From a virus (lineage: Duplodnaviria; Caudoviricetes), in IMG/VR virus record IMGVR_UViG_3300021962_000304, positions 1 to 36,001 of that record: DNA of 36,001 nucleotides; one strand, given 5' to 3'. This document shows positions 16,148-34,243 of the stretch, in pieces (position 1 is the first letter of the stretch; each line of letters opens with the position of its first letter). A program made the position numbers and the translations under genes. The notes under the pieces are model-generated. The model was not told the DNA's origin. It did no database searches and saw only the letters and a list, made by a program, of their open reading frames with translations.

Positions 16148-16840
16148 TCAGCGGGTTTCTGCGACGTAGTCGGCGTAGAGGGACGGATTCTTCTCGATCA
16201 GACCGGAAATTGCCTGCTCGACGGTGGCGAACTCACCACGCGAGACAGCGGACTTGGCGAGAGTTTCGATTCGCTGGTACGCATCGCCCGTCTGGGGAAC
16301 GAACGATGAACCGATTTCAGCGAAAATGGCGGCCGATTCAGCCTGACCGTTGGCCGCATCCAAAGCCTTGGAAACGGTTTCGGCAAGTTCGGGAGCGAAT
16401 TCGCTCAGACGGCGCAGAGCCGGGGCGAACTCGTCGTGCTCCAGCGGGAGGTTCGGGTAACGCTCTTCGGACTTGGCGACAGCCTCAGCATCCAGACGGA
16501 TCTCGCGCTCCTTGCGGAGTTCCTCTTCGGCGTACTCGGCGGCCTGACGAGCCTTCTCCAACGCTTCGCGGACAGCCGGGGGAGCCGACTTCAGAAGGGA
16601 ATCCTCGTCGTTCGCATCATCTTCTTCGTCGTCTTCCTCGGGGTTTGCCTCGAGTTCCGCAATGCGAGCGTGAGCCTTCTCCAACTCAGCCTCCAGCGAC
16701 ACCATCTTTTCGATGACGGTGAAGTCTTCGTTGTCCAGTCCGGAGTTCTTCATCAAAATCCATCCTTCATCCAAGTGGGCAGGATGGTCTACGCCTGACG
16801 TTTCTTCAATGTTCAACTTGACCATCTTGCGCGGAGCCAT
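16148..16840 (-). CDS. Scaffolding protein
   Basis: Likely start MAPRK. LNIEETSGVDHPA motif, acidic coiled coil, several hxK[AS] sites and C-terminal NPSLYADY. Confidence 0.8.
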   Translation of the reverse strand: MAPRKMVKLNIEETSGVDHPAHLDEGWILMKNSGLDNEDFTVIEKMVSLEAELEKAHARIAELEANPEEDDEEDDANDEDSLLKSAPPAVREALEKARQAAEYAEEELRKEREIRLDAEAVAKSEERYPNLPLEHDEFAPALRRLSEFAPELAETVSKALDAANGQAESAAIFAEIGSSFVPQTGDAYQRIETLAKSAVSRGEFATVEQAISGLIEKNPSLYADYVAETR

Positions 16841-16897
16841 CGCACGAGGACGGTAGTGATACGCCAAACGGCAATCAACTAAACAATGTTCTATTAC

Positions 16898-17877: not shown

Positions 17878-18741
17878 TTACTCCCGAACTAAGTCGCTCG
17901 CCATTGGGAGCGTCCGTGTATCGTGCGGATAAGCCCTTTCCGCCTCAGACCTTGACATTGACCCCTTCACGAAACCCCACTCCGAGTCCGCCTTCACCCA
18001 CATACCGAACTGAATATCGCCCTCACGGATCTCCTTCAACAACGTGGAGACACCGTTCGCATCAATCCCAAGACGCTCCTCGACCAGAGACTTAGCAACC
18101 CCAGCACCTTCCAGCAACACGGAACGGTCACCAGAACGAACGAAAATCCCAGTCCCCTCGGGTCGGACAGAGAACAGGCGGCCATCAACACGGACCGAAG
18201 CCGGGATAACCGCCAAATCGGCATCTGCAGCCTTCACAACCTGCTCCGAGGGCTCACCCTGCAACCTCATTGACGATCCACCAATTGAAAAACCCCTGAT
18301 CTTGCCCTGTTTCACCAGATCCCACGCCCACGGTTTCCAAACAACCCCCAAGAACACCGTACCCTCAGGATAGGCGACCTCAGCACCGTCAGCGGCCTTT
18401 CGCATCGTCACCTGAACAGGCAACTGCATAGCCTCAACCCACTCGCCGGCAATTATGTCCCGGTTGTGTTGCAAACGGATACCGCGGTCACCCTTACGCA
18501 CGTAATCCCACAAACCAGCCTGCAATTCCTCGGCATCAGTCCACTCACTATGGGCATCCAGACGATTTGGGATGTACCAAGGACCCAAGGTGAACCGTTT
18601 CTCATCGACAGCCTTATGGATCAACTCGACGGCGGCAACGGCGGCAACACTCATCGCATCAGCATCAATCTGCTTGCGAACATCCTCTGGCAGATCCGCG
18701 TACGGAACCTCGCCGGCAAGCCATCCCTGATAATCAGCCAT
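17878..18741 (-). CDS. Prohead (capsid maturation) serine protease, XkdF-like
   Basis: YIPNRLDAHSEW, LQH, G.WVE, PEGT.FLG and WDLVKQGKIRGFSIGG motifs; core flanked by IHKA and VVKA. Confidence 0.85.
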   Translation of the reverse strand: MADYQGWLAGEVPYADLPEDVRKQIDADAMSVAAVAAVELIHKAVDEKRFTLGPWYIPNRLDAHSEWTDAEELQAGLWDYVRKGDRGIRLQHNRDIIAGEWVEAMQLPVQVTMRKAADGAEVAYPEGTVFLGVVWKPWAWDLVKQGKIRGFSIGGSSMRLQGEPSEQVVKAADADLAVIPASVRVDGRLFSVRPEGTGIFVRSGDRSVLLEGAGVAKSLVEERLGIDANGVSTLLKEIREGDIQFGMWVKADSEWGFVKGSMSRSEAERAYPHDTRTLPMASDLVRE

Positions 18742-19454: not shown

Positions 19455-19637
19455 CTATTCAGTAGGGGGATTTACCCAAGTCCAGATACTCATCGGCATT
19501 CTGGCTATCGCATTCTCAAGGAGTATCGGAGTTGTCCGGATACCACCGCGTTCAATGATCACTCGAGTTCCAAACTTGGGGTCATCATCCTCAATGTCGT
19601 AAACCGACGCTTTGCCGGCATAGGCGATCAACTTCAC
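19455..19637 (-). CDS. Small hypothetical protein (60 aa), possible orphan immunity/partner
   Basis: Coupled to the upstream gene by a GTGA overlap; terminal gene of the effector array. Confidence 0.55.
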   Translation of the reverse strand: MKLIAYAGKASVYDIEDDDPKFGTRVIIERGGIRTTPILLENAIARMPMSIWTWVNPPTE

Positions 19638-19873
19638 ATCCGCTCCTGTCTGATGATTTTCATTGCCAGAGCCTCATCTTCGGGGGTATTGGCGACGAAC
19701 AGCAGGCCGCCGTCCCCCTCAAAAGGCAACCGATGGTCAAACCCATCCACAAAAATCTCCACCGGGATGCCGTCTGGGAAAGCATCGCACGTTGACACTT
19801 CAAACTCGCCCATCCTGACCGCTGAATCACGCAACCGCTTACACGCCCAGCACATACCAATACCCTCGGTCAT
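19634..19873 (-). CDS. Small Cys/His protein, candidate immunity protein for the upstream zincin
   Basis: CWAC...TCDAFPDGIP.EI...FDH..PFEGDGG..F; ATGA-coupled to the metallopeptidase gene. Confidence 0.65.
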   Translation of the reverse strand: MTEGIGMCWACKRLRDSAVRMGEFEVSTCDAFPDGIPVEIFVDGFDHRLPFEGDGGLLFVANTPEDEALAMKIIRQERM

Positions 19874-21213
19874 ACTTGATCGCCCTTCCCACTATTTTTG
19901 GTCAATTTCGGCACTTTACCGGATCGAATAACCTCTAACAAACCCTCCGTTACCTCGACGGCGATACGAGTCGCGGGAGGATGCCCCGGTTCAAACTTTG
20001 CGGCGAAATATTGCGAAGCACATTCAGCGACAAACTCGTCGTAGTTGGTCAAACCGTACCTAGATAGGTCTCTCTGAGTTTGAGTGTTGCGGAGACCGGC
20101 TAGTTTCACTCGGCCGCGACCCGGCAAACCGTAAACACGCCGAATGATTGGACTAACCAAGTCCATCAATGCACGGTCGTACTTCGTTCGGTCATCCGAA
20201 TCTTTCCAATACGACTGAACAACCTTGCCCTTATCCCCGTACAAGGCTGTATTGCCTGCTTGATAGCCGATATGGTGACCAACCTCGTGGTAGAATGTCC
20301 TATTTGGAGATCCTGTCGAAGAATGGTTATCTGCGAATCTTTCTTTGCCCCGCCAGATCCAAAACTCTTCGGCATTCATTGATCGCCCCGGAAGACTCAG
20401 ATCGGTTATACCCCCCTTCACGAAGGTCATCCTGAACTGAGAAGGGGAAAACCCTATGTATGCCTCCTCGGTTCGACCAGCCCAGCCAGAGGCGGTAGCA
20501 CCACCTTGCGATGACTGAGGTTCCCAACTGATCTTAGAAATACCAGTACAAACCTCGGGAATTTCCTTGAACATATTGTCCATTGACGATGCAAATGTAT
20601 TTGCGGCCCAATCTGGCAGTTGAGAAACACCGTCAGTAACGAATCGACTGGTTCCGTTACCCGGCGACCACTTCGCATTCAGCCAATCCAAAGCCTCAGA
20701 CATAGTTGCGAACACGGGTGGTTTCTCATCCCAATCACGCCCAGTAGGAGTCTTGCGGCCAGAAACAGTCGGCTCCACAACCGCCCCACCCTGCTGTTCT
20801 CGCCATTTATCCGGAGTCAATGGCTCCACACCACTATTCCGAGACCAACGAATATGGGCTGCGTAGCGGCCAGCCTCCGAACGCGACGCGAACTTCGCCT
20901 TCATCATCGCATAGTCAAAACCGACGCTCTCGGAGTTCACATCTTCAACAAACCCCAACTGGTTCGGCGGTCGGTCAACAATCTGAGCGTATGGAAGCGA
21001 CTGGATAGCAGACGAGATGGTCCCCCACGCCTGCACATCTGTTTCCAAACTTGCCGGCATCAAAAAATCTATTTCGGCACAATGCACCGAATCCCCTAAA
21101 GCAACCAAAACATCAACTTTTTGGCGAAGATCGCCGTCACAGTTCAACCCATTTTCGAGATCAAACTCTGCAAACTTCAACACATCATCTTGCTTGTACA
21201 CGAATCGCATCAT
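19870..21213 (-). CDS. Effector 6: about 100 aa leader, shared motif, zincin metallopeptidase (lethal-factor/MPTase-like)
   Basis: Start at the ATGA overlap. MMKAKFASRSEAGRYAAHIRW; FYHEVGHH and LSRYGLTNYDEFVAE. Confidence 0.8.
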   Translation of the reverse strand: MMRFVYKQDDVLKFAEFDLENGLNCDGDLRQKVDVLVALGDSVHCAEIDFLMPASLETDVQAWGTISSAIQSLPYAQIVDRPPNQLGFVEDVNSESVGFDYAMMKAKFASRSEAGRYAAHIRWSRNSGVEPLTPDKWREQQGGAVVEPTVSGRKTPTGRDWDEKPPVFATMSEALDWLNAKWSPGNGTSRFVTDGVSQLPDWAANTFASSMDNMFKEIPEVCTGISKISWEPQSSQGGATASGWAGRTEEAYIGFSPSQFRMTFVKGGITDLSLPGRSMNAEEFWIWRGKERFADNHSSTGSPNRTFYHEVGHHIGYQAGNTALYGDKGKVVQSYWKDSDDRTKYDRALMDLVSPIIRRVYGLPGRGRVKLAGLRNTQTQRDLSRYGLTNYDEFVAECASQYFAAKFEPGHPPATRIAVEVTEGLLEVIRSGKVPKLTKNSGKGDQV

Positions 21214-22718
21214 CGTGAACCTGCCAAAACAAGTGCCCCAAGGAATTGCTTCACCGATGTCATATCTGTCCAACTTTTCCGCCTGTTGTCAGGAGACAAC
21301 ATTTCGGACAACACAGTCGAGAATTCGCTGTTATTCCAGTTGTAAGCCATCCCTTTTCCAAACTTAGTGAGTCCGTAAATGCCATCCCCGTAGAACTGGC
21401 CGCTGTACGGTTCGCTGAGTTCGTCTTTGAACACCGATCCCCCAGCCGACCCGGTGTGCGTTTTTTCTGGTTTCAACCCGATTGCACGATCACGGGCTGT
21501 CATCGACCGATCTTGAGCACCCAACCGACGGTAATGCAACCCAACATTGTCCAATGCGGCGAAAAACGGGCTGTACTCAACAACCGCGTGGAAATACTCG
21601 TGAATCATCGTGTTCTTTTCAGATGAAGTCAAAATTTTGGGTCCACTACCTTTTCCGACCATACTCATCCGTTGCCAATGGCCGCCGCCACCACTTTTTG
21701 TGAGAAGAATGCCGTCACCAGTTCCCGGCTGACGAAAAGCGCGAGATTTTTCGTTCACTTCGGTAATCAAAGTTTCCGGTACAACCATTTTGATGAGGTC
21801 GCGCATAGTTTTTGCCTGTGACCCGTGCAAAGCAGGTGTTACAGAACCCATCGGAACAAGTTGAGACAAAACTGCCAGCACAGCATCCACTTGCGTCTTT
21901 CGTGCCTGATCAATAAGTCCCCTTGATGCCATTACAACGTCTGTGTAATAATCGCTCCGAGTTTTCCCGGTGCGTTCAATCCAAAATTCGTCTGAAATTT
22001 GTCGAGTCAACTGCACAGCCTCAGTCTGCAACTCGGGAGGTACGACCTCACCGCTCAGCCGAAGAGCACGAATTCTGGCTCTGACCTCACCCAGACGGCC
22101 GCCACGCAAACTCTCCTCAGAATTTGATAATTCCGACTCCCATTCGTTCATCTGTTTCCACGTCGCATCAAAACGCCTTACCGCGTCATCGACCAACACG
22201 GCAACATTTGTACCGGCGACCTCATTTATCGCCTCAACAACCAATTCACCCAGATCAATCACATCATCCATCATCTGAATCGCACCAGCATTGAGCCGGT
22301 ATCCGTTAGCCCGATTACCACTCAATACACCTGTGTTGACCACCTGCGGGATCGTACCCGTAAGAACCAAATCAAGTCCGTCCGCCGAAACATTCATAAC
22401 CGGGCTGAGGGATAACTCCTCAATGTCCGCTCGAAGTTTCTTCACCTTCTCGCTTGCCATCGCCTGTTTCAAACCCTCTAACGCCGACGCAGGGGGCGGA
22501 GGAGGAGGCGTTACCGTAGACCCACCGGACTGTTGGGCTCGCCAAGCCTCAGGGGTCAATGGTTCAACACCGCTTTCGCGTGACCAGCGGATGTGGGCCG
22601 CATACCTGCCAGCCTCAGACCTTGAGGCGAACTTCGCCTTCTCCAGATCGTCGTGGACCTCGTCATCTTCACGAGAAACAAGGCGTAAGTCTGTGTGTGC
22701 CCCAATAAACCGGCTCAT
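21210..22718 (-). CDS. Effector 5: short leader, shared motif, helical region, HExxH zincin
   Basis: Start at the ATGA overlap. LEKAKFASRSEAGRYAAHIRW; MIHEYFH...EPYSGQFY...SEFST. Confidence 0.8.
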   Translation of the reverse strand: MSRFIGAHTDLRLVSREDDEVHDDLEKAKFASRSEAGRYAAHIRWSRESGVEPLTPEAWRAQQSGGSTVTPPPPPPASALEGLKQAMASEKVKKLRADIEELSLSPVMNVSADGLDLVLTGTIPQVVNTGVLSGNRANGYRLNAGAIQMMDDVIDLGELVVEAINEVAGTNVAVLVDDAVRRFDATWKQMNEWESELSNSEESLRGGRLGEVRARIRALRLSGEVVPPELQTEAVQLTRQISDEFWIERTGKTRSDYYTDVVMASRGLIDQARKTQVDAVLAVLSQLVPMGSVTPALHGSQAKTMRDLIKMVVPETLITEVNEKSRAFRQPGTGDGILLTKSGGGGHWQRMSMVGKGSGPKILTSSEKNTMIHEYFHAVVEYSPFFAALDNVGLHYRRLGAQDRSMTARDRAIGLKPEKTHTGSAGGSVFKDELSEPYSGQFYGDGIYGLTKFGKGMAYNWNNSEFSTVLSEMLSPDNRRKSWTDMTSVKQFLGALVLAGSR

Positions 22719-23548
22719 TCCACAACCTCCAAAACCCACTCAGATCCGACGCGATAGGTGTCGCCATTTGCTAGTTCTTTGAAAACATCTTTGATTTCCA
22801 CGACCCTCAACTTACTCTTCGGTCGAAGCAACACTTCCTGCTCGTCCCTAACCCCCCTAAGACCCGGCACAATAGCCTTGTAACCCTTCGGCAGACGGAT
22901 CTTCATCACAACAGGGTATGTGTATTTCACCGACTCCTCGGTCCAATCACTTCGGAAATCGTTAGCCACACCCCTGCTCGCTGATGTGGACATAAATGCG
23001 TCATCCTCATACACATCACCGACTTTGATTTGGCGATCCTGTGCCATACCTAAACCGCGATACACAAAGGTGTCTTTGGGCATCGGCAAAGCCAATTGAT
23101 CAAACTCTTTGACTAACCGATCCGTCGCCGCCCCGGTTTCTTGGTCAAATGTCTGCCGAAAATCATTCGCCCAATCATCCGGATTACCGCCTCGAAGATA
23201 ATCGTTCATTGCCCGATACCCCAAGGAAATGTATTTGCTGACATAATACGCGGCCAAAACGGTGCTGTTCCGACCGTCTGCATTCTTCGGCAAATCACCA
23301 ACCGCTTTAGCATCGCCCAACAAATCGTCAAACAAGCCGATTGCCTGTTGGTGCATCGCATCCCACTCGTCTGGGGACATTGCCTCAAACCGACGCTCAG
23401 AATCAGCCAGATGCCCCTTCCACCTCTGCTCGGCGGCATAGCGGCCAGCCTCAGAACGAGAAGCAAAAGTTGTTGATTTCCCCATCGTTCCACCTGACAG
23501 AAAAACGAGGTCAGACAAATTTACAACGAACCGATTATCAACCGACAA
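22715..23548 (-). CDS. Effector 4: short leader, shared motif, VIP2/C2-type ADP-ribosyltransferase
   Basis: Likely TTG start after GGAGG. MGKSTTFASRSEAGRYAAEQRW; Y..MNDYLR, VYRG, FMSTS, IRLPKG and EQEVLL (R-S-E, ExE). Confidence 0.85.
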   Translation of the reverse strand: MSVDNRFVVNLSDLVFLSGGTMGKSTTFASRSEAGRYAAEQRWKGHLADSERRFEAMSPDEWDAMHQQAIGLFDDLLGDAKAVGDLPKNADGRNSTVLAAYYVSKYISLGYRAMNDYLRGGNPDDWANDFRQTFDQETGAATDRLVKEFDQLALPMPKDTFVYRGLGMAQDRQIKVGDVYEDDAFMSTSASRGVANDFRSDWTEESVKYTYPVVMKIRLPKGYKAIVPGLRGVRDEQEVLLRPKSKLRVVEIKDVFKELANGDTYRVGSEWVLEVVE

Positions 23549-24539
23549 GATCCACCTCCACAATCGTGACAAACCCTCGATCGGGATCACCATATTCATT
23601 TAGCCCAACGATGCGGAACTTACTGTCAGGTCTGAGCAAGATCTCTTGCTCGTCACCTGAATAACCCGGAGGTGGAACTGACACCTTCGTGCCTTTCGGA
23701 ATACGAATTCGCATCATCATATAACCTTGATTTGAGTCGTATGGATCAGCAAAACGGTCGGCAACATCTCTGCTCGCTGAAGCAGACGAAAATGCACGAT
23801 CCGAAAAAATGTCCCCGACTTTAGGGCGAGGAAGATCCTCGTCAAACAGATTGACTCTCAGACCTCGGTTGACTATCCGATCAAACGGCATTTCGACAGC
23901 GTACTTATCAAAGTTGCGTACCAAAGTTTCCACCTGCTCACCAAAAGGTGAGTCTGCCGGGAGCCCATCCATCTCTCTCAGATAGGCATTTATATTCACG
24001 TGACCCGACCGCACATAATGTTCAAGCATCCGCACTACCTCTGCACCCTCCGCTGACTCACCCCTTAGGCTCTCCTCTTTCTTCCGCGCCAGCGACCGCA
24101 ACTCCCGGTACTCCTCAGATGACATTGAGTCAAATACCTTTGCCGGCTGACCTCCCCTATCCTGCCAGCGCACATTGGCGGCATAGCGGCCAGCCTCAGA
24201 ACGAGACGGAAACTTTGCCTTCGTTACATCCGGAGAATCCGGTCCATCGCACGAGCCCTCAGACCCTAGAAATACAGACGGTGTCGGCCGCTCAACAATT
24301 CCTTGACCAAGCAGTCTCAAAGCGTACTCGACCGTGACAACCGCCTCCATTTCGGAAGCCAAACTTGCACGAAATAGGGCGAAAGGGAACCGCGGCGAAC
24401 TGACCATCATCTCAACATCAATGAGGGTATTCACCATCATTATCGTCAAAGAATCAGCGTCAATTTCCGTGTTATCCACCGAGTCGGTCGAATACACAGA
24501 AACGCTAGAGCCGTCTTCCAAAGTCCAATTCAGCATCAT
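23538..24539 (-). CDS. Effector 3: about 105 aa leader, shared motif, VIP2/C2-type ADP-ribosyltransferase
   Basis: Start at the TGATG overlap. VTKAKFPSRSEAGRYAANVRW; INAYLR, VNRG, FSSAS, IRIPKG and EQEILL. Confidence 0.85.
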   Translation of the reverse strand: MMLNWTLEDGSSVSVYSTDSVDNTEIDADSLTIMMVNTLIDVEMMVSSPRFPFALFRASLASEMEAVVTVEYALRLLGQGIVERPTPSVFLGSEGSCDGPDSPDVTKAKFPSRSEAGRYAANVRWQDRGGQPAKVFDSMSSEEYRELRSLARKKEESLRGESAEGAEVVRMLEHYVRSGHVNINAYLREMDGLPADSPFGEQVETLVRNFDKYAVEMPFDRIVNRGLRVNLFDEDLPRPKVGDIFSDRAFSSASASRDVADRFADPYDSNQGYMMMRIRIPKGTKVSVPPPGYSGDEQEILLRPDSKFRIVGLNEYGDPDRGFVTIVEVDLVG

Positions 24540-27268
24540 CACAACACAGCCCAAATACCCATAGTGAATGCGGCCAACTCAACGTCAATTTTATTGAACC
24601 TAAATCTGTTCGGAAACAACAGGTGGTCAGTAGAAGTTGTTACCTGTTCGTGAGCAGAAAACCGTGTCCTATAAATCCTGCCTGCATACGGATCAAGGTA
24701 ATCATCCTCAAATCGTGTGTAACCCAAACTCAGTTCGTCTGTCAACGCTTCAAAACTTGAAGACATAAGACGATCAGCAAAATTCTTGACTGTCGTAGTC
24801 CGTTCTGATCTCTGTTTTACATTCCCGGTCGTGCGATGGTAGTCAAACGCCGAAATGAGTGCTTTTACAGACGGTGTTCTGTCTTCGTACATATGAACCA
24901 TTTCGTGAATTGCCGTTCCAAGAGTCGAATACGGCGACATACGGACTACTTGATTCGCAGCGCTCCACGAACTAGCCGTTTCGGCAATGCCCTCCACACG
25001 GAATTTCCCGGTCGCTTTGATTCGTTTCAACCAATCTGTAGGTAACTCCTGCAATACCTCAGTAACACGCCGAGTCAGGGTTTCCGCCATCTTTTTTTCG
25101 GCTGTGTAAAACATTGATTTCGCATCTGCCTCGCTAATACCGAAATCTCGTATTTCTTTCAACACTTGCAAACGGATCGCTCGAGAACTGTCAGCGACAG
25201 GTTCGTTCAACTCAACCCACTTTTCGCCTGCTCGTGCGCGTAGTTCCATCAAATTCTGCACCACTCGCTCTACATTGCCTGTCGCCAACAAGTCGTCAAA
25301 CTTGAAGTCAATTCCTAAAGCACTAGCCATTTCTTTGGCATCGTCTCGCATACGGACAATTCTGTACTGGGTGAATAATGGATCATCTGGACCAATAGGT
25401 TTACCACCAGCGGTGTTCAAAGTTTTCACGAATGCGGCCAAACCAGTATCAAACGAATCAATTGGCAAATCCATTTGTGCCGCTGTCTTCAGACGCTCGC
25501 TCTCTACAGAATATTCGCCGGGTACAAATGAATTTTTTGCATCAATTCGACGTTGGACTTCTTGGTTGATCAGCGAACCTAACTCGGTCACATCAAACAT
25601 CAATTGCATAACTTCTGCGTTTGGAACCAACCATCCGTCAACATCAACAAGCCACGCTTTATGGATCTGAGACGGTGTTTCAGCCGGGATCTTCGTTTGG
25701 TCCCACACATCGGCGGCCACAAAACTTTCTTCATCCAGCAACATATCGTTGCCACCGTCCGGATTAGAAAACGTATTCAATTGACCGAGGAAATCCGACG
25801 GGTCGCCGCCATCCAGAATTTTCAATTTTGCTAGTCGAGCGGCCACAGATTCACGAAGATCAACAATTTTCTGCATTTCGGCAGATCGCCCGGTGGCTGT
25901 AGGAGTCTGTTGACCGGCTCGCCATTGATCAACAGGCGTAGGTTCAATCCCGCGCTCGCGCGACCATCGCACGTGAGCAGCATAGCGGCCAGCCTCAGAA
26001 CGAGAAGCAAATTTCGCTTTTTCTAAATCTGCGAGGTTTGCATCGCCACGAATCTCTACCGGAATATCAAGATCACGATCTTCCAACATTGATTCAACAG
26101 ATTCTTTGCTGTCTTCGTCCGCAACCCAAATACGAGCAATATCGGACAGAGTTACACCGCCCAAAACCTGCGCTTCGGTGTAACCGCCACGAATATCAAC
26201 AGGACTAGGTCGTTGCGAAAAACCGTGTCCCAAATGATCACGCAATTTTTCTGCCGTCACTTCTTTGACAGGTATTGTTCTGGCAACAGTCCCCAGAGAA
26301 TCAAGACCTGCCAAAGTTGTGCGTGACAGAACTGATGGCTTCAGTTCAACAGCGATCTCACCGTATGAATTTGAGTTTTCACTCCACTTGCCACGCTCGC
26401 TGTCTCGAGGTTCAGTCATATATGAACGTGGCATAGCCGAACCGTAGATCGGTCGTTTTGTTGGGAGACAGTCCGTGACAATACCCATTGCGGCGGCCTC
26501 ATAGGCTGCTCGTGTGTTGGGGGACAACAAACCTCCAGAACCCCCGGTAGCGAACTGAGATAAAAACTGTTCCTCGTCTAGAACGAGTTCCAAACCTGTT
26601 TCGTCAATGTTCACAAAAATTGTCGGGTTGGCCGCCGTCTCGCGGTGGATGCTTTCTGATATGTCGTTAGCCCATTGTGTGCCGAATGTAGAAATTCGTG
26701 CTGCTTCAGACAACAACTCGGCAAGCATATAACCGACACCATCCTTTGTCGGGACTGTGCCGTCGTCACCGTAAGTTTTAGGGTAGACCTTCCACGATTC
26801 GGGGATCGTACCCAATAATTCAATAATTCTTGTAGCAAGAACCGCTTCTTCTTGCACCGACGCAGAAATTGACTCCGGTGTGTTCGTCTTTTTCAACTCT
26901 TTCAGTCGTTGCAAAGATTCTTGGACTTCCGGATCATTTTCAATTTGAAGAAGCGGCCTGAACGGTCGCCCACCCAAAGCCTCAGAGTAATTATCCGTAG
27001 GATCAACAAAATCTTCCTTGACCGCCACAGGAGGTTTTGGTTGCTCGGCAATCCGCCATACATCAGCCGGGACAGGTTCAACCCCTCGTTCTCGCGCCCA
27101 CCTAACGTGAGCCGCATACCTACCAGCCTCAGACCTCGAGGCAAACTCCGCCTTCTCCATCGTGTCGTTGGTTTTTCTTTGGACACCCAATGCAACCTTG
27201 ACCCGATGAATAAATGTTTCTTTATCACGCGCCGAACCGTATGGTCCCCGAATCACCATTTTGCTCAT
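24539..27268 (-). CDS. Effector 2 (two-module polyprotein): motif plus DUF3626-like domain, second motif plus HExxH zincin
   Basis: MEKAEFASRSEAGRYAAHVRW; FLSQF.TG.SGG, RPIYG, YG.I...LK, RTT...DS, YTEAQVLGG. Internal LEKAKFASRSEAGRYAAHVRW; AIHEMVH...DPYAGRIY...HEQVT. Confidence 0.8.
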   Translation of the reverse strand: MSKMVIRGPYGSARDKETFIHRVKVALGVQRKTNDTMEKAEFASRSEAGRYAAHVRWARERGVEPVPADVWRIAEQPKPPVAVKEDFVDPTDNYSEALGGRPFRPLLQIENDPEVQESLQRLKELKKTNTPESISASVQEEAVLATRIIELLGTIPESWKVYPKTYGDDGTVPTKDGVGYMLAELLSEAARISTFGTQWANDISESIHRETAANPTIFVNIDETGLELVLDEEQFLSQFATGGSGGLLSPNTRAAYEAAAMGIVTDCLPTKRPIYGSAMPRSYMTEPRDSERGKWSENSNSYGEIAVELKPSVLSRTTLAGLDSLGTVARTIPVKEVTAEKLRDHLGHGFSQRPSPVDIRGGYTEAQVLGGVTLSDIARIWVADEDSKESVESMLEDRDLDIPVEIRGDANLADLEKAKFASRSEAGRYAAHVRWSRERGIEPTPVDQWRAGQQTPTATGRSAEMQKIVDLRESVAARLAKLKILDGGDPSDFLGQLNTFSNPDGGNDMLLDEESFVAADVWDQTKIPAETPSQIHKAWLVDVDGWLVPNAEVMQLMFDVTELGSLINQEVQRRIDAKNSFVPGEYSVESERLKTAAQMDLPIDSFDTGLAAFVKTLNTAGGKPIGPDDPLFTQYRIVRMRDDAKEMASALGIDFKFDDLLATGNVERVVQNLMELRARAGEKWVELNEPVADSSRAIRLQVLKEIRDFGISEADAKSMFYTAEKKMAETLTRRVTEVLQELPTDWLKRIKATGKFRVEGIAETASSWSAANQVVRMSPYSTLGTAIHEMVHMYEDRTPSVKALISAFDYHRTTGNVKQRSERTTTVKNFADRLMSSSFEALTDELSLGYTRFEDDYLDPYAGRIYRTRFSAHEQVTTSTDHLLFPNRFRFNKIDVELAAFTMGIWAVL

Positions 27269-28068
27269 CGCACACCTGCCAGATACAGAGAAACCGACCC
27301 CTTGGAAACTGCCTCGCTCGGGGCGGCCACTTGCTCAAAATAAGCCAACATCTCGGGGCGTTCCGCACCATCGGCAATACTTTCCGGTGTCTCATACCCA
27401 AGTTCCTTGTATTCACGAACCGTCCCAATCCAAGGGAAATCCTGATTAGGGTCAAATTGACGCAAAGTGAAATCAATGATGATTGCATCATCAGAATCTT
27501 GTGGACCGATATGGGTTACGAAATGTGTTCCGTTTCCTTCGCCATACCACGGTTCACCGACCTCACGGAGAAATACCTCACCCTCCTGAACAACCCCTTT
27601 TTTCAAAAGAAACTGTCCTACATCGACCGAAGCAATACCACAATTCCCGGCGGCCAAAGCACCGTTCGCATAGGAACTGAGAGTGAGTCTGTCTTCCGAC
27701 ATCAAGTTCGCTTCCTCCTCAGGTACACCAGCGTCAATCAGGTCATCCAAAATTGAGTCGTCACCCAAACCCCAATGCGAAGTTCGGACACCAAGGATTG
27801 CCGGCACGAGTTTCTTGATCGCATCAACCGTAACCCCCTCTCCGGTGGTGTCTTTCTTTGAGTTGCCTTTCCACCGTTGCTCGGCCGCATACCTGCCAGC
27901 CTCAGACCTCGAGGCAAACTTGCCTTTTTCGACATAACGCTTGGCGGCATACAAGGCTCTCAACTGCGCCAAAGCCTTTGACCGAGAAGAATGTTTCCCA
28001 ACTACCTTCTCGGTTCCCTCACGAACGACGACATACTCGCCACCACGATTTTCTACCTTCCAAGGCAT
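27265..28068 (-). CDS. Effector 1: small basic N-terminal domain, shared motif, transglutaminase/papain-like Cys-His-Asp domain
   Basis: Start MPWKV at the TGATG overlap with MuF. VEKGKFASRSEAGRYAAEQRW; AGNCGIAS, THFVTHI and IIDFTLRQF. Confidence 0.7.
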   Translation of the reverse strand: MPWKVENRGGEYVVVREGTEKVVGKHSSRSKALAQLRALYAAKRYVEKGKFASRSEAGRYAAEQRWKGNSKKDTTGEGVTVDAIKKLVPAILGVRTSHWGLGDDSILDDLIDAGVPEEEANLMSEDRLTLSSYANGALAAGNCGIASVDVGQFLLKKGVVQEGEVFLREVGEPWYGEGNGTHFVTHIGPQDSDDAIIIDFTLRQFDPNQDFPWIGTVREYKELGYETPESIADGAERPEMLAYFEQVAAPSEAVSKGSVSLYLAGVR

Positions 28069-28973
28069 CAGAACTCCTCGTCGGGGAAAATTAGGAGAGC
28101 CGTACACCGACAATTCGGATGAGCCGGTGGCATCAACCGTCCGTTCGGGAACAGATCATTGACCGCAACTGTCTGACCAGCCAGTTCCTGACACTTTTCG
28201 CATACCTCTACGCCTTGCCAGCCGTCTGGTCCGATTACCCACTCTTTACGAAGCAACCCAGCCGGGAAACCAGACTGCTCTATGAATTGTTGCCATCCCA
28301 TAAAGCGTCCAGCGTTGTTCGCTGAGATGATTTCCGTGCGAGCAATCGTGTTCGCTCGAACTGTTGTCAACCTCGCTCTGTAGGCATCGGCCGCGGCGGT
28401 AGCACGAGTAGTAGCCATCCCGACCGTCATCCCTGTTGCGGTCAATGTGTCCAAAGTACGAGCGTAAAGGCTATTTACGGCTCTGCTCCACCGAGAATGT
28501 AGACCGACAAGACTTTCAATTTCCTTGGCGATCTGATTGACCGTCAATTGATCACGGTATCCGCGAGCCACCAAATCTTTGACCTGCAGCCGAACCTGCT
28601 CAGAAATCTCGACAATTAGATCCCCGGCTCGACGCTCCGCCCAAGCCAACGCCCTCGGATCTGTTACATCAAACGCCACTCGGATAGCGGCCGAGGAAGG
28701 CAGCGAACCGATCGCATCAGCCGCTGCCATCTGGATTTCGGCAAGTAAAGGCTGAATTATCAGAGGGGTGACCTCAGCCAAACCAGCCAAAATGTCCACC
28801 CCGGACAACTTGTTCAATATTTCGGCAGATGAACCCTTCCCAGATCCAATAGTCGTCATCAGGACTCGAGACAATTGGCGTGTAACCGCGTCCACCGCCC
28901 GAGCCATATCAACCTCGGTGCTGGTCAGTTCATATGCCTTAGTTAGAGATGTAGTCTTCAATCGGACCACCAC
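28068..28973 (-). CDS. Minor head protein, Mu gpF / SPP1 gp7 (MuF) family, no C-terminal toxin
   Basis: RANTIARTE, KEW, C..C..L.G and PPAHPNCRC, then stop about 11 aa later. Follows the portal; start approximate. Confidence 0.9.
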   Translation of the reverse strand: MVVRLKTTSLTKAYELTSTEVDMARAVDAVTRQLSRVLMTTIGSGKGSSAEILNKLSGVDILAGLAEVTPLIIQPLLAEIQMAAADAIGSLPSSAAIRVAFDVTDPRALAWAERRAGDLIVEISEQVRLQVKDLVARGYRDQLTVNQIAKEIESLVGLHSRWSRAVNSLYARTLDTLTATGMTVGMATTRATAAADAYRARLTTVRANTIARTEIISANNAGRFMGWQQFIEQSGFPAGLLRKEWVIGPDGWQGVEVCEKCQELAGQTVAVNDLFPNGRLMPPAHPNCRCTALLIFPDEEF

Positions 28974-30366
28974 TCTGCATCGGGGCTTCCGGAACAGTCT
29001 GCGCCGGGGCAACAGGAGCGGCCGGTACTTGATCTTGGGGGTTCGCATTGGGCATCATCTCCGCACCCATAGGCATTGCACCCTCCTCTTCCACCTTCGG
29101 CGGCAAACCGACGAGGTCGCGAACAAACTCATCCAACCCGGAATCAACCTGCAAAGCCCCAGCCCCAGCCATCTTCGTGATGAAATCACCGAGAACCTGA
29201 AGATCCGTTGTCTGCAATTCCTCGACGCGGAGCGTCGGCGGCCGTAGGGGGTCCATCCCGTTCATTTTCAACAGCCGAGGTATCGCATCTTTGTTCATCA
29301 CATCTGCCACTTGAGCGGTCATCTGAGCGATTGCTGTCATAAAAAGGTCAATTTTGGATGATCCGAGGGCAAAAGAACCGACTTTTTCGTGTCCCAGCAG
29401 GATGAAGTCAGCCAAAATCGTCATTGCAATCCGCTGGTCATATCGACCGACTACAGCATCAGTATTGAACTGCCGGTTACCGCCACTTGACAGAAGTGTC
29501 AACTTGTACATTTCTCGTCCACCCTCGTCAAAAGCGAGCGGGAAAAGAATGCCCTCGTTCTGGTTTCGTTTGATGCCCCGGACCAAGTTTTGGATCGCAT
29601 TTCGGGCGGCCACTTCATCAGCGGTTGCGGTCGATGACAGCATTGACGGTGGCACATAGGCGACCGGCAAGCCAGCGAGGTCGCGTTCAATGCCGATTGC
29701 CTCAATCTCTTCAATCGTCTTCTTGAACCGCCACGGGCGGTAGGCGTTACGGAGAAGCGACCGTCCCTCGGGGCTATTCCGCTGGTTTGATGTGCGGAAC
29801 AGAAGCGACTTTTCGATCGGAATCGTCACCAGTCCGGTTCCTGAACTCGGATCTAACTGTCGCATACCCAAAATGTCCCCATTTGGGGCGATATCCCAAT
29901 CAAAAAGTGTCTCTTGCGCTCGGTTTGCAAGTCGCCGCCAGCCGATCCTGCCATCGTCGTACCGAGACTGTTTGCGCTTATCCTTGGATTCCATCCCATT
30001 GCGCTTTTTGTAGACGATTTCACAGTATGACCAGCCGTAGGTCAAGAACGACAGGATTTGCGAGAGCGTGGTACTCCACGAATCCTCCATATCGTCCAAA
30101 CATTCTTCGACGAACTGGGCGACTTTCTCATCCTTTTTGGCGGCCTTGGTACTCTTCGCATCCTTGTACGGATCTACGTGCCATTTCAGATTCAAGATCA
30201 TTCGCTCGACTGCGAAAATCATCGCTCCGATAACCGGGTCATTGTCCGCCATCTCGCGGTAGGTCCGAGCACCACGAAGTCCTTGAAGACCGGCGACGAA
30301 TTCATCTGTAACCGAGCCACCGGATCGCTGATATCCGTATGTTCCGATTTCTTTCATGTCAGCCAC
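28939..30366 (-). CDS. Portal protein (DUF935 / Mu gp29-like)
   Basis: YREMADNDPVIGA, L.YGWS..EIVYK, PEGRSLLRNAYRPW.FK, GIERDLAGLP and ILADFILLG...GSFAL motifs; likely GTG start at 30366. Confidence 0.9.
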   Translation of the reverse strand: MADMKEIGTYGYQRSGGSVTDEFVAGLQGLRGARTYREMADNDPVIGAMIFAVERMILNLKWHVDPYKDAKSTKAAKKDEKVAQFVEECLDDMEDSWSTTLSQILSFLTYGWSYCEIVYKKRNGMESKDKRKQSRYDDGRIGWRRLANRAQETLFDWDIAPNGDILGMRQLDPSSGTGLVTIPIEKSLLFRTSNQRNSPEGRSLLRNAYRPWRFKKTIEEIEAIGIERDLAGLPVAYVPPSMLSSTATADEVAARNAIQNLVRGIKRNQNEGILFPLAFDEGGREMYKLTLLSSGGNRQFNTDAVVGRYDQRIAMTILADFILLGHEKVGSFALGSSKIDLFMTAIAQMTAQVADVMNKDAIPRLLKMNGMDPLRPPTLRVEELQTTDLQVLGDFITKMAGAGALQVDSGLDEFVRDLVGLPPKVEEEGAMPMGAEMMPNANPQDQVPAAPVAPAQTVPEAPMQSGGPIEDYISN

Positions 30367-32821: not shown

Positions 32822-34243
32822 TTACGGTTGGAAACCTTTTCCGCAGCCAAGACATTGTGGTTCATCGTTCGCATCGTCAACCGACTTCTTCGTCTTCTCG
32901 TAACGATCCAGCAACCTCCGCCCCTTGGCGGCCAGCCGTCGAGCATCCTCAGCGTTCTTCGGAACCGGCTCCCCCCACGCGTGGGCGGACAGGGCGAGTC
33001 GTGTTGGCTTGCCCTTTTCATCAACCATCGGACCAGACGGGTTCGTGAAAAACCGGGTTAGGAAGGAACCCTTCCGTCGCATCTTCTCGGGGGTATCTGC
33101 TGGACCTTTGACTCCCGGCTTCAAATTTGCACCCTCGGTCCGCTTGAAGTGCCTCCGCCCAGCCGCAGTAAGACCACCCTTGGGATCGCGGAGCCGTTCC
33201 TTCTTGGTTTCCTCCATACCGCCGGGAGCGTTAGGAGCGGTCGAGGGACCAGCGATAGACCTCAGACCCATATCGGCTGTCCAACTGTTAGCGATTTGCA
33301 AAACTTCCGAAATTGGAGCGTCAATCATCCGGACTTTTACATCCAAATCGCCCAAAGTGCCGTCAGACAGGTCTTTTCCAACCGTGGCGGCCCAACGGTG
33401 GTGTCCGTCAAGGATGTATCCGTCACGAGTAACCCAAATTTCCTCTGCGTCAGGCTTGAACTTTGGGTCGCTCATCATCTGAGCAACCTGCGTACCCTTC
33501 ATATCAGTTTGGGTCGCTTTTAGAGACGAGGCACGAACCTTCTTGCTCTCCACACCGATACCCAATTCCTTCTCAAGGTGGGCTTCAAAAAGATCCGCTC
33601 CCTCGACCTCACCCCATTGGTTGCGAGGGAGAGCGTCAGCCTTGGAGCCAGCCACAGGCTTTGAACGCAATTGGGGCATTTTCGCTCGAGGAACACCCTT
33701 ATTGTCTTTGCAAAACAGGCTTGTGCCGGGAACGGTCACCTTACAGAGGTCATAGTTCGGTGCATCGCGCCCCTTCAACTTTGCGTCATTGGCGATCCGA
33801 GCAAGTTCGTTCAGCAGGGTGTGAACATCACCAATATCCTCCAATTCAACAACCTTGCCCTCATTCATTGCCGCCACAGCCTCATCAAGGGTCTTCACCT
33901 TGATCACTTCTGGACGCTGATAGCCGGCAGATCCCCCCGCGGCCACAGCCCCGGTCGCTGCCGTCGCATTGGTAGGTGCTGCACCGCTGGTCGCCACGGC
34001 GGGTGCTTTCTGCTCCTTGATATGACCCTTCCAGCGAGCCTCGGCCGCAATCCGACCAGCCTCGGAACGGTTGGCCGCCTTCAAAACGCTCTGCTTCCGG
34101 ACACGATCCACAGTCCCTTGCAAGATCAACACGGTTGACTTCGACATTGTGTTGGTTCGCATCTCTCGTTCAACCACATCCATCGTGGCTGGATCAAGGT
34201 TGCCTTGGGCACGAACAAGTTCAATCAGAGCATCAATATTCAT
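32822..34243 (-). CDS. Multidomain protein: leader, shared motif, ParB/Srx-like domain, basic DUF6321-like domain
   Basis: Start MNID at the ATGA overlap. VLKAANRSEAGRIAAEARW; LKATQ...IWVTRDGYILDGHHRWAA; DPKGGLTAAGR...NLKPG...RRKGSFLTRF...TRLALS..AW. Confidence 0.75.
   Translation of the reverse strand: MNIDALIELVRAQGNLDPATMDVVEREMRTNTMSKSTVLILQGTVDRVRKQSVLKAANRSEAGRIAAEARWKGHIKEQKAPAVATSGAAPTNATAATGAVAAGGSAGYQRPEVIKVKTLDEAVAAMNEGKVVELEDIGDVHTLLNELARIANDAKLKGRDAPNYDLCKVTVPGTSLFCKDNKGVPRAKMPQLRSKPVAGSKADALPRNQWGEVEGADLFEAHLEKELGIGVESKKVRASSLKATQTDMKGTQVAQMMSDPKFKPDAEEIWVTRDGYILDGHHRWAATVGKDLSDGTLGDLDVKVRMIDAPISEVLQIANSWTADMGLRSIAGPSTAPNAPGGMEETKKERLRDPKGGLTAAGRRHFKRTEGANLKPGVKGPADTPEKMRRKGSFLTRFFTNPSGPMVDEKGKPTRLALSAHAWGEPVPKNAEDARRLAAKGRRLLDRYEKTKKSVDDANDEPQCLGCGKGFQP

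Follow-up and report, generated by a model that had tools for sequence, protein, structure and literature searches.

Analysis of the 36,001 nucleotides of the IMG/VR virus record IMGVR_UViG_3300021962_000304 (Duplodnaviria; Caudoviricetes; positions 1 to 36,001, hereafter the window), one 36-kb contig, revealed a tailed-phage head module whose minus strand encodes, in this order, a portal protein, a MuF protein, six cargo proteins (A to F), two small open reading frames (ORFs), an XkdF-type protease, the major capsid protein and tail genes (Table 1). The cargo array is thus surrounded by genes of the head and DNA packaging module (portal, MuF, protease and major capsid protein), as MuF toxins are. 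The MuF gene itself ends with its Pfam domain and has no toxin extension; the enzymes are separate genes marked by a basic tag, K-A-x-F-x-S-R-S-E-A-G-R-Y-A-A-x-x-R-W, of which seven copies lie in cargos A to F and an eighth in a DUF6321-containing protein. Cargos C and D carry VIP2-like (R-S-E) ADP-ribosyltransferases (ARTs), with a PF03496 match and the R, S-x-S and E-x-E motifs, while B and E end in zincins of the HExxH...Y-x-G-x-x-Y type (Z1), which are related to each other at E 5e-5.

Cargos C to F each begin with a leader that precedes the tag. A sequence-only reading of the window had noted that the long leaders of C and F follow the related zincins of B and E, and that the short leaders of D and E follow the two ARTs; the leader sequences, their positions and this arrangement were all confirmed. 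Within the window, the C and F leaders align with a local score of 40 (p=0.011, 3000 shuffles), which as the best of 28 pairs is not significant after correction, and the D and E leaders do not reach significance (shuffle p=0.081). Profile alignment, named beforehand as a possible refutation, established the long pair. Leave-out profiles, built without rows at least 30% identical to the target, gave 44.7 bits for leader C and 59.5 bits for leader F (300 shuffles gave at most 6.3), database-only profiles gave 34.6 and 55.1 bits, and searches started from either leader led to the same proteins and to a single family. Both short leaders contain the motif [RK]F-x5-D[LVI], which confirms that pair. 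All four leader junctions are spanned by contigs of an independent run (X4, records 9, 11 and 12), so the array is not an assembly artefact.

The correspondence between leader and preceding enzyme extends well beyond the window. A scan for the tag gave 45 viral and 42 metagenome loci plus one more (88 loci, including window copies and duplicates), and 210 tagged ORFs after identical ones were merged; the loci are related, and pair counts drawn from them are not independent. The leader domain of about 100 aa was found in 31 ORFs, 30 of which have an upstream gene, and in 29 of these 30 that gene has a C-terminal Z1 zincin. Read in the other direction, members of the leader family follow 27 of 31 Z1 zincins (15 fused, 12 free) but only 1 of 142 other genes. 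Class-3 (VIP2-like) ARTs are followed by a short fused leader in 12 of 12 cases, nine of them with [RK]F-x5-D[LVI], a motif seen after 1 of 161 other genes, and that one is leader F itself. An acidic peptide, recognized by eye, follows 14 of 16 GNATs and is in one case a free 31-aa ORF. The remaining classes behave in the same way: a D-N...DW-x-KA domain follows the class-4 (ART) payloads (9/9), always fused, an MTP domain the class-6 payloads (6/6), a B-type leader the A-type payloads (3/3) and the Cys-containing ORF G the F-type zincins (all four rows, three distinct). Judged by these families, all junctions from A to G obey the rule that the partner comes after its enzyme, not just the four first reported, and the leader of C is cognate to the zincin of B, and the leader of F to that of E.

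A further comparison separates the influence of the upstream payload from that of the leader's own cargo. It kept 63 of 95 fused leaders; the 32 dropped belonged to the heterogeneous class 0, were shorter than 12 or longer than 140 aa, or were near-duplicates. Leader pairs that share the upstream payload class but differ in their own payload are similar (z>4) in 118 of 210 cases, compared with 2 of 150 pairs that share their own payload but differ upstream and 15 of 1567 pairs that share neither. Likewise, the nearest-neighbour leader has the same upstream class in 54 of 63 cases and the same own class in 13 of 63. Homologs of B, C, D, E and F bear other leaders where a different class lies upstream, which by sequence comparison shows that the partner is exchanged when the upstream payload is exchanged. 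The gene unit is therefore tag, enzyme, stop/start overlap and class-specific partner. This is the part of the sequence-only reading that stood: it had proposed such a unit with the partner tied to the upstream enzyme, and had added that cutting at the K/A site (the slash marks the predicted cut) could arm the enzymes, for which support is weak given that an unfused ORF, for which no cut is needed, comes after 16 of 31 Z1 zincins; 12 of these ORFs belong to the leader family.

Table 1. Features of the array and its surroundings in the window; a slash marks the predicted cut.
Feature	Position	Strand	Match
MuF head morphogenesis gene, directly upstream of the array	28068..29048	-	Pfam PF04233, E 7e-10
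Cargo A: N-terminal phrog_3684-like segment, tag (core 27871-27909), class 13 payload	27265..28068	-	
Cargo B: 909 aa, C-terminal Z1 zincin (HEMVH 24893-24907)	24539..27268	-	
Leader of B, type typical of class-13 payloads	27155-27268	-	
Tags of B, with a DUF3626-like module in between	27098-27136 (tag 1); 25964-26002 (tag 2)	-	
Leader of C: zincin-partner family domain; VTK/A site 24219-24221	24222..24539	-	
Cargo C: tag (24165-24203), VIP2-like ART with R, S-x-S and E-Q-E motifs	23538..24221	-	PF03496, E 3e-9
Short leader of D: ART-partner peptide, RF-x5-DL 23507-23533; TTG start 23548 behind GGAGG	23480..23548	-	
Cargo D: tag (23420-23458), VIP2-like ART with YRG, STS and EQE	22715..23479	-	PF03496, E 1.5e-12
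Short leader of E: ART-partner peptide, RF-x5-DL 22686-22712; LEK/A 22638-22640	22641..22718	-	
Cargo E: tag (22584-22622), helical region, Z1 zincin (HEYFH 21588-21602)	21210..22640	-	
Leader of F: zincin-partner family domain; MMK/A 20899-20901	20902..21213	-	
Cargo F: tag (20845-20883), second zincin type (HEVGH 20275-20289)	19870..20901	-	
Gene G: free 79-aa Cys-containing ORF at the end of the chain, partner of F-type zincins	19634..19873	-	
XkdF-type putative head maturation protease, candidate for the K/A cut	17878..18741	-	PF14550, E 3e-9; PHROGs head maturation protease matches
Eighth tag copy, in a DUF6321-containing protein, behind VLK/A	34031..34069	-	

Partners also occur outside the fused arrangement. 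A library-wide search with the leader profile returned 111 matches, of which seven repeat-rich ones were set aside as noise; 76 are free proteins of at most 135 aa and 28 are longer, and in 25 of these 28 the tag stands right behind the domain. Two library proteins (P0038 and P0070) are long fusions of the zincin-partner domain that have other candidate tags instead of this one. The free ORFs that the sequence-only reading had asked for behind the same enzyme class are thus present, including the 12 that follow Z1 zincins. Phages that lack the tag, of Bacillus and Gordonia among others, encode partners as well. In Bacillus phage vB_BboS-125 an unannotated ORF (L092:2812-3078) directly behind a MuF-Z1 zincin fusion matches the zincin-partner profile (25.6 bits; hhalign E 1.4e-4). 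Of 13 phage ART loci, five show an exact copy of the ART motif, which had been noted ahead of the reading of the phage records: it is free in Forza gp81, GMA2 Orf15, S4-3 and ctl617, and in cis in Gray gp26. The class-4 partner is in cis at locus L029, and at L080, where the Z1 zincin is internal in a polyprotein, the partner is encoded by a separate ORF at a distance of about 3.5 kb. Cultured phages gave no match to gene G. Across five classes (17 close pairs) the partners show ratios of nonsynonymous to synonymous polymorphism (pN/pS) of 0.14-0.29, in pairs picked at an identity of at least 55%, which lowers pN; they are under purifying selection. A class-specific genetic partnership with the upstream enzyme therefore exists in four arrangements (fused, free, in cis and displaced), and partners found free, in cis and displaced are not mere passengers of the tag.

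In GMA6, a cultured Gordonia phage, a homologous ART peptide (its score was reached by 4 of 5000 shuffles) leads Orf14 in front of EDK/A and a different repeated tag; the Gray ortholog, 40% identical, lacks the peptide. That second tag, VR-D-x-x-[YF]-WG-x-P-x-GTPI, stands behind K/A or similar sites in GMA6 (L109:8862-13003) and Gray (L110:7042-11045), where it marks cargo genes between portal and protease, and a scan for the GMA6-type tag gave one new locus, without a cargo array. A third tag, YG-x-PIGS, is found in GMA2 and Forza. Planktothrix phage PaV-LD (L094:346-4749) encodes an ART and two Z1 zincins that share a Cys-rich N-terminal motif, QCVK...YNCG..CI, possibly a further tag, with one small ORF after the last zincin.

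The long leaders gave no Pfam or PHROG family, no PDB sequence match and no Atlas match at 0.9, and none of the partners tested has a Pfam family. Leader F is modelled as a compact alpha/beta domain (predicted local distance difference test 87), and the long leaders had no fold match above Z 3.6 or E 0.05, which does not show a new fold. The comparison of the zincin partner with the HipS antitoxin (7ab3_B; Z 3.0, root-mean-square deviation 4.0, 68 residues) was level with unrelated rows. A mirror tree of zincins and partners gave r 0.89, a value expected from linkage that was not used as proof of binding.

The catalytic motifs of the enzymes are complete. B and E have HExxH and a downstream Glu ligand, as zincin metallopeptidases do, and H, E, H and the later E (the third ligand) are invariant in all 30 aligned Z1 zincins, which form 20 clusters at 50% identity. 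PDB matches of the Z1 family are weak, to zincins among others, and its model matched nothing in the PDB at E 0.001 and, in BFVD, uncharacterised phage proteins only; a single-sequence scan found close kin only and a homolog search six proteins. The E-x-E motif of the ARTs is one that we take to mark Arg-specific enzymes. The class 13 payload of A is presumably papain-like, from its NCG...H...D pattern; papain-like, Fic and topoisomerase are labels that we assume for some payloads, unlike Zeta and GNAT, which come from the analysis itself. Gene B and the multi-tag ORFs of relatives combine at least two unrelated conflict domains in one polypeptide, as polyvalent proteins do, while C to F have single payloads. 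A second in-frame start of gene D, the ATG at 23485, comes with a Shine-Dalgarno-like site of its own and could yield D without its leader.

Several relatives extend this repertoire. At L015:5269-7191 the XkdF protease is joined through the tag to a Zeta-toxin-like kinase, and similar proteins (L040:3695-6564, L039:3034-7286 and L070:13180-17174) are followed by a partner of 70-100 aa, which is a separate ORF at some loci and part of the next tagged gene at others. A tagged payload that by eye resembles a small alarmone synthetase (L013:9317-11103) is followed by a free 66-aa ORF. In an internal zincin class (L034:1-3321, L040:33-3374 and L042:6334-9894) the last part is a conserved LP-x-x-HPV segment, immediately ahead of the following tag; this segment is possibly an in-cis partner.

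The boundary between partner and tag resembles a processing site. Of 215 tags, 203 have K[AGVS] no more than 12 residues ahead of them, in 174 cases 6-7 residues away; Ala follows the Lys in 161 and the P3 residue is hydrophobic in 189. Several such sites also occur in the scaffold-like and protease genes. Cleavage at hydrophobic-x-K/A is thus plausible. HK97 is cleaved at K103/S104 (PMC10275583) and XkdF has been proposed as a head-processing peptidase (PMC7824862). The scaffold-like protein (window 16148-16867) has six hydrophobic-x-K[AS] sites in 230 residues and is a candidate substrate of the XkdF-type protease. A gamma-glutamyl cyclotransferase-like gene (PF06094; 16898-17296) also lies within the head module. 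The closest relatives of the protease are Arthrobacter phage proteins (identity up to 63%), which makes an actinobacterial host likely. No integrase was found among the 38 ORFs scanned in this partial contig. A tag scan of genome contigs confirmed no locus.

We propose that the array encodes phage enzymes that are probably packed into the head, and that each enzyme's partner, probably an inhibitor, is fused to the next enzyme in front of a predicted protease site and the shared tag; on balance we consider this the probable explanation. In the producing cell the partner would bind and block its cognate enzyme, which is likely by analogy with the small ORFs behind MuF toxins: such ORFs follow 89.4% of these toxins (PMC5576092), and binding immunity has been shown for Apk2 (PMC12226406) and Bxa (PMC11699363). 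In the ART peptide, the conserved Arg/Lys might serve as a decoy for the active site, although this detail is speculative. The basic tag would probably bring each cargo to the prohead or to DNA, and there is a good chance that the XkdF-type protease would then cut hydrophobic-x-K/A, so that the tag stays on the cargo and the partner is left untagged. Packaging is inferred from the position in the head module and from GMA2 Orf10, a cargo with another repeated tag that was detected in virions together with its tag peptide (PMC4524720, Table S5). Ejection of the tagged enzymes into the next host without their partners, to act there on host proteins, has roughly even odds; release would more likely come about as tagged enzymes unfold and eject while untagged partners stay behind. 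Fusion is optional, and probably arises from shuffling of tag-bounded cassettes in which the partner gene supplies the start of the next cargo; it would also couple the amounts of partner and next cargo.

Several observations weigh against this proposal. Four of the 31 Z1 zincins are followed by a different 100-aa ORF that scores 0.7 bits with the profile, three of the 12 class-3 ARTs carry a different short leader, and the [RK]F-x5-D[LVI] test used a pattern read from the data. Only one of six Z1 zincins of cultured phages has a matching downstream ORF; three have small non-matching ORFs and two have none. Seven of the 13 phage ART loci lack a clear motif, a 9-row profile hidden Markov model of the short leader did not rank the phage peptides above controls, and next to some internal modules no partner is encoded. 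K[AS] is not enriched across head proteins (50/267 lysines vs 30/156, with the out-of-frame MuF row disregarded). GMA6 Orf13 and Orf14 are absent from a short virion list of three proteins (PMC4524720, Table S5), and inhibition, cleavage and packaging in the tag family rest on inference.

The genomic results show a partnership but not its sign, and the partner could instead be an activator, a folding or packaging chaperone, or a split-off subdomain of the upstream enzyme. The in-cis forms (Gray gp26, L029) fit a subdomain too. However, the catalytic motifs are complete in enzymes without the partner, the predicted cut would leave the partner without a tag, partners are often encoded separately, again without a tag, and the small ORFs tested behind MuF-type toxins are immunity proteins (PMC12226406, PMC11699363), and we regard this alternative as unlikely. 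A stricter form of the inhibitor proposal, in which fused inhibitors chain the enzymes into one silent complex that the K/A cut switches on during head maturation, would account for the cut-like site between nearly every leader and its tag, for the adjacent protease gene and for the complete fusion of the class-3 and class-4 ART partners. Arming is nevertheless the weakest step, because the cut would free the partner from the next cargo and not from its own enzyme, and because free partners are common, behind Z1 zincins and, for ARTs, in several cultured phages; we consider it quite improbable.

At the DNA level the tags share 62-84% identity across 45 nt and have exact runs of up to 32 nt, similar enough to recombine, so a cassette exchanged from tag to tag would carry the leader along. 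Leaders could thus hitchhike with the upstream payload without any link at the protein level, and the window indeed shares a block of ART end and leader (and tag) with L008 and L010, where it stands at another gene position. Recombination of this kind probably does explain the shuffling of cassettes, but as an account of the partnership it is very improbable and already largely refuted, since partners persist free of the tag, in cis and displaced, with purifying selection. It is scarcely credible, finally, that a leader acts as propeptide or targeting signal for the cargo to which it is joined: the covalent link and a placement like that of the capsid targeting propeptides of T4 (PMC9026906) speak for such a role, yet same-class cargos with different upstream classes hardly ever have similar leaders, and homologous cargos bear unrelated ones.

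The proposed array of enzymes and partner inhibitors has counterparts in several described systems. MuF polymorphic toxins (PMC5576092; Apk2, PMC12226406; Bxa/Bsi, PMC11699363) share the head module, the ART and metallopeptidase payloads and a small partner directly behind the enzyme, here as free ORF G and fused leaders, with free forms common in relatives, and in vB_BboS-125 a Z1 zincin that is truly fused to MuF is accompanied by its partner. In those systems, however, the toxin is fused to MuF, whereas the window has six separate tagged cargos whose partners are fused to the next cargo. Polyvalent proteins (PMC5512222, PMC9503650) likewise bring many conflict enzymes (ART, GNAT, zincin, Zeta-like kinase) close to head genes, some of them multi-module and predicted to be injected, but here the modules are bounded by a repeated tag with a cut-like site and have a class-specific partner, neither of which is in the descriptions compared. 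The T4 capsid targeting sequence and internal proteins, with Alt (PMC9026906), resemble the array in that a short sequence is common to diverse cargos, an ART among them, and in prohead-protease processing. The T4 signal is a removed N-terminal propeptide, cut after Glu, whereas the tag lies C-terminal to the predicted cut, is often internal and would stay on the cargo, following a Lys site, the removed part being the neighbour's partner. Polyimmunity loci (PMC3482391) also contain immunity-like domains that can be fused, but they are immunity-immunity arrays never broken by toxin genes, while each partner of the present array is joined to an enzyme of an unrelated kind. Head-packaged enzymes, MuF-VIP2 fusions and polyimmunity loci are described in PMC5512222, PMC9503650, PMC3482391 and PMC7302621, the portions compared containing no fusion of a partner to the next enzyme, and a literature search, with most subscription papers and survey supplements outside its reach, revealed neither an account of the tag nor one of this arrangement. 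By analogy, the array would be a MuF toxin-immunity system multiplied and loaded by a signal like that for capsid targeting, while being a member of neither family.

The rule allows the partner to be read from the enzyme across many unnamed phage families, for zincins, several ART classes, GNATs, papain-like payloads and Zeta-like kinases. It would explain how a phage makes several harmful enzymes late without harming its own production, and it predicts a portable capsid-loading tag outside T4 as well as very short ART inhibitor peptides. In its most far-reaching form, which we put forward only tentatively, a retained tag of 20 residues packages and ejects any cargo, a class-specific inhibitor on the next cargo silences each enzyme, and the arsenal is put together as a self-neutralised chain to be cut apart by the head protease, with the same grammar used with unrelated tags (GMA6) and with a nine-residue motif that may block Arg-specific ADP-ribosyltransferases. 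GMA6 and Gray offer a natural pair in culture, with the partner on the next gene in one and in cis in the other. If the proposal is true, the arrays are a catalogue of new enzyme-inhibitor pairs.

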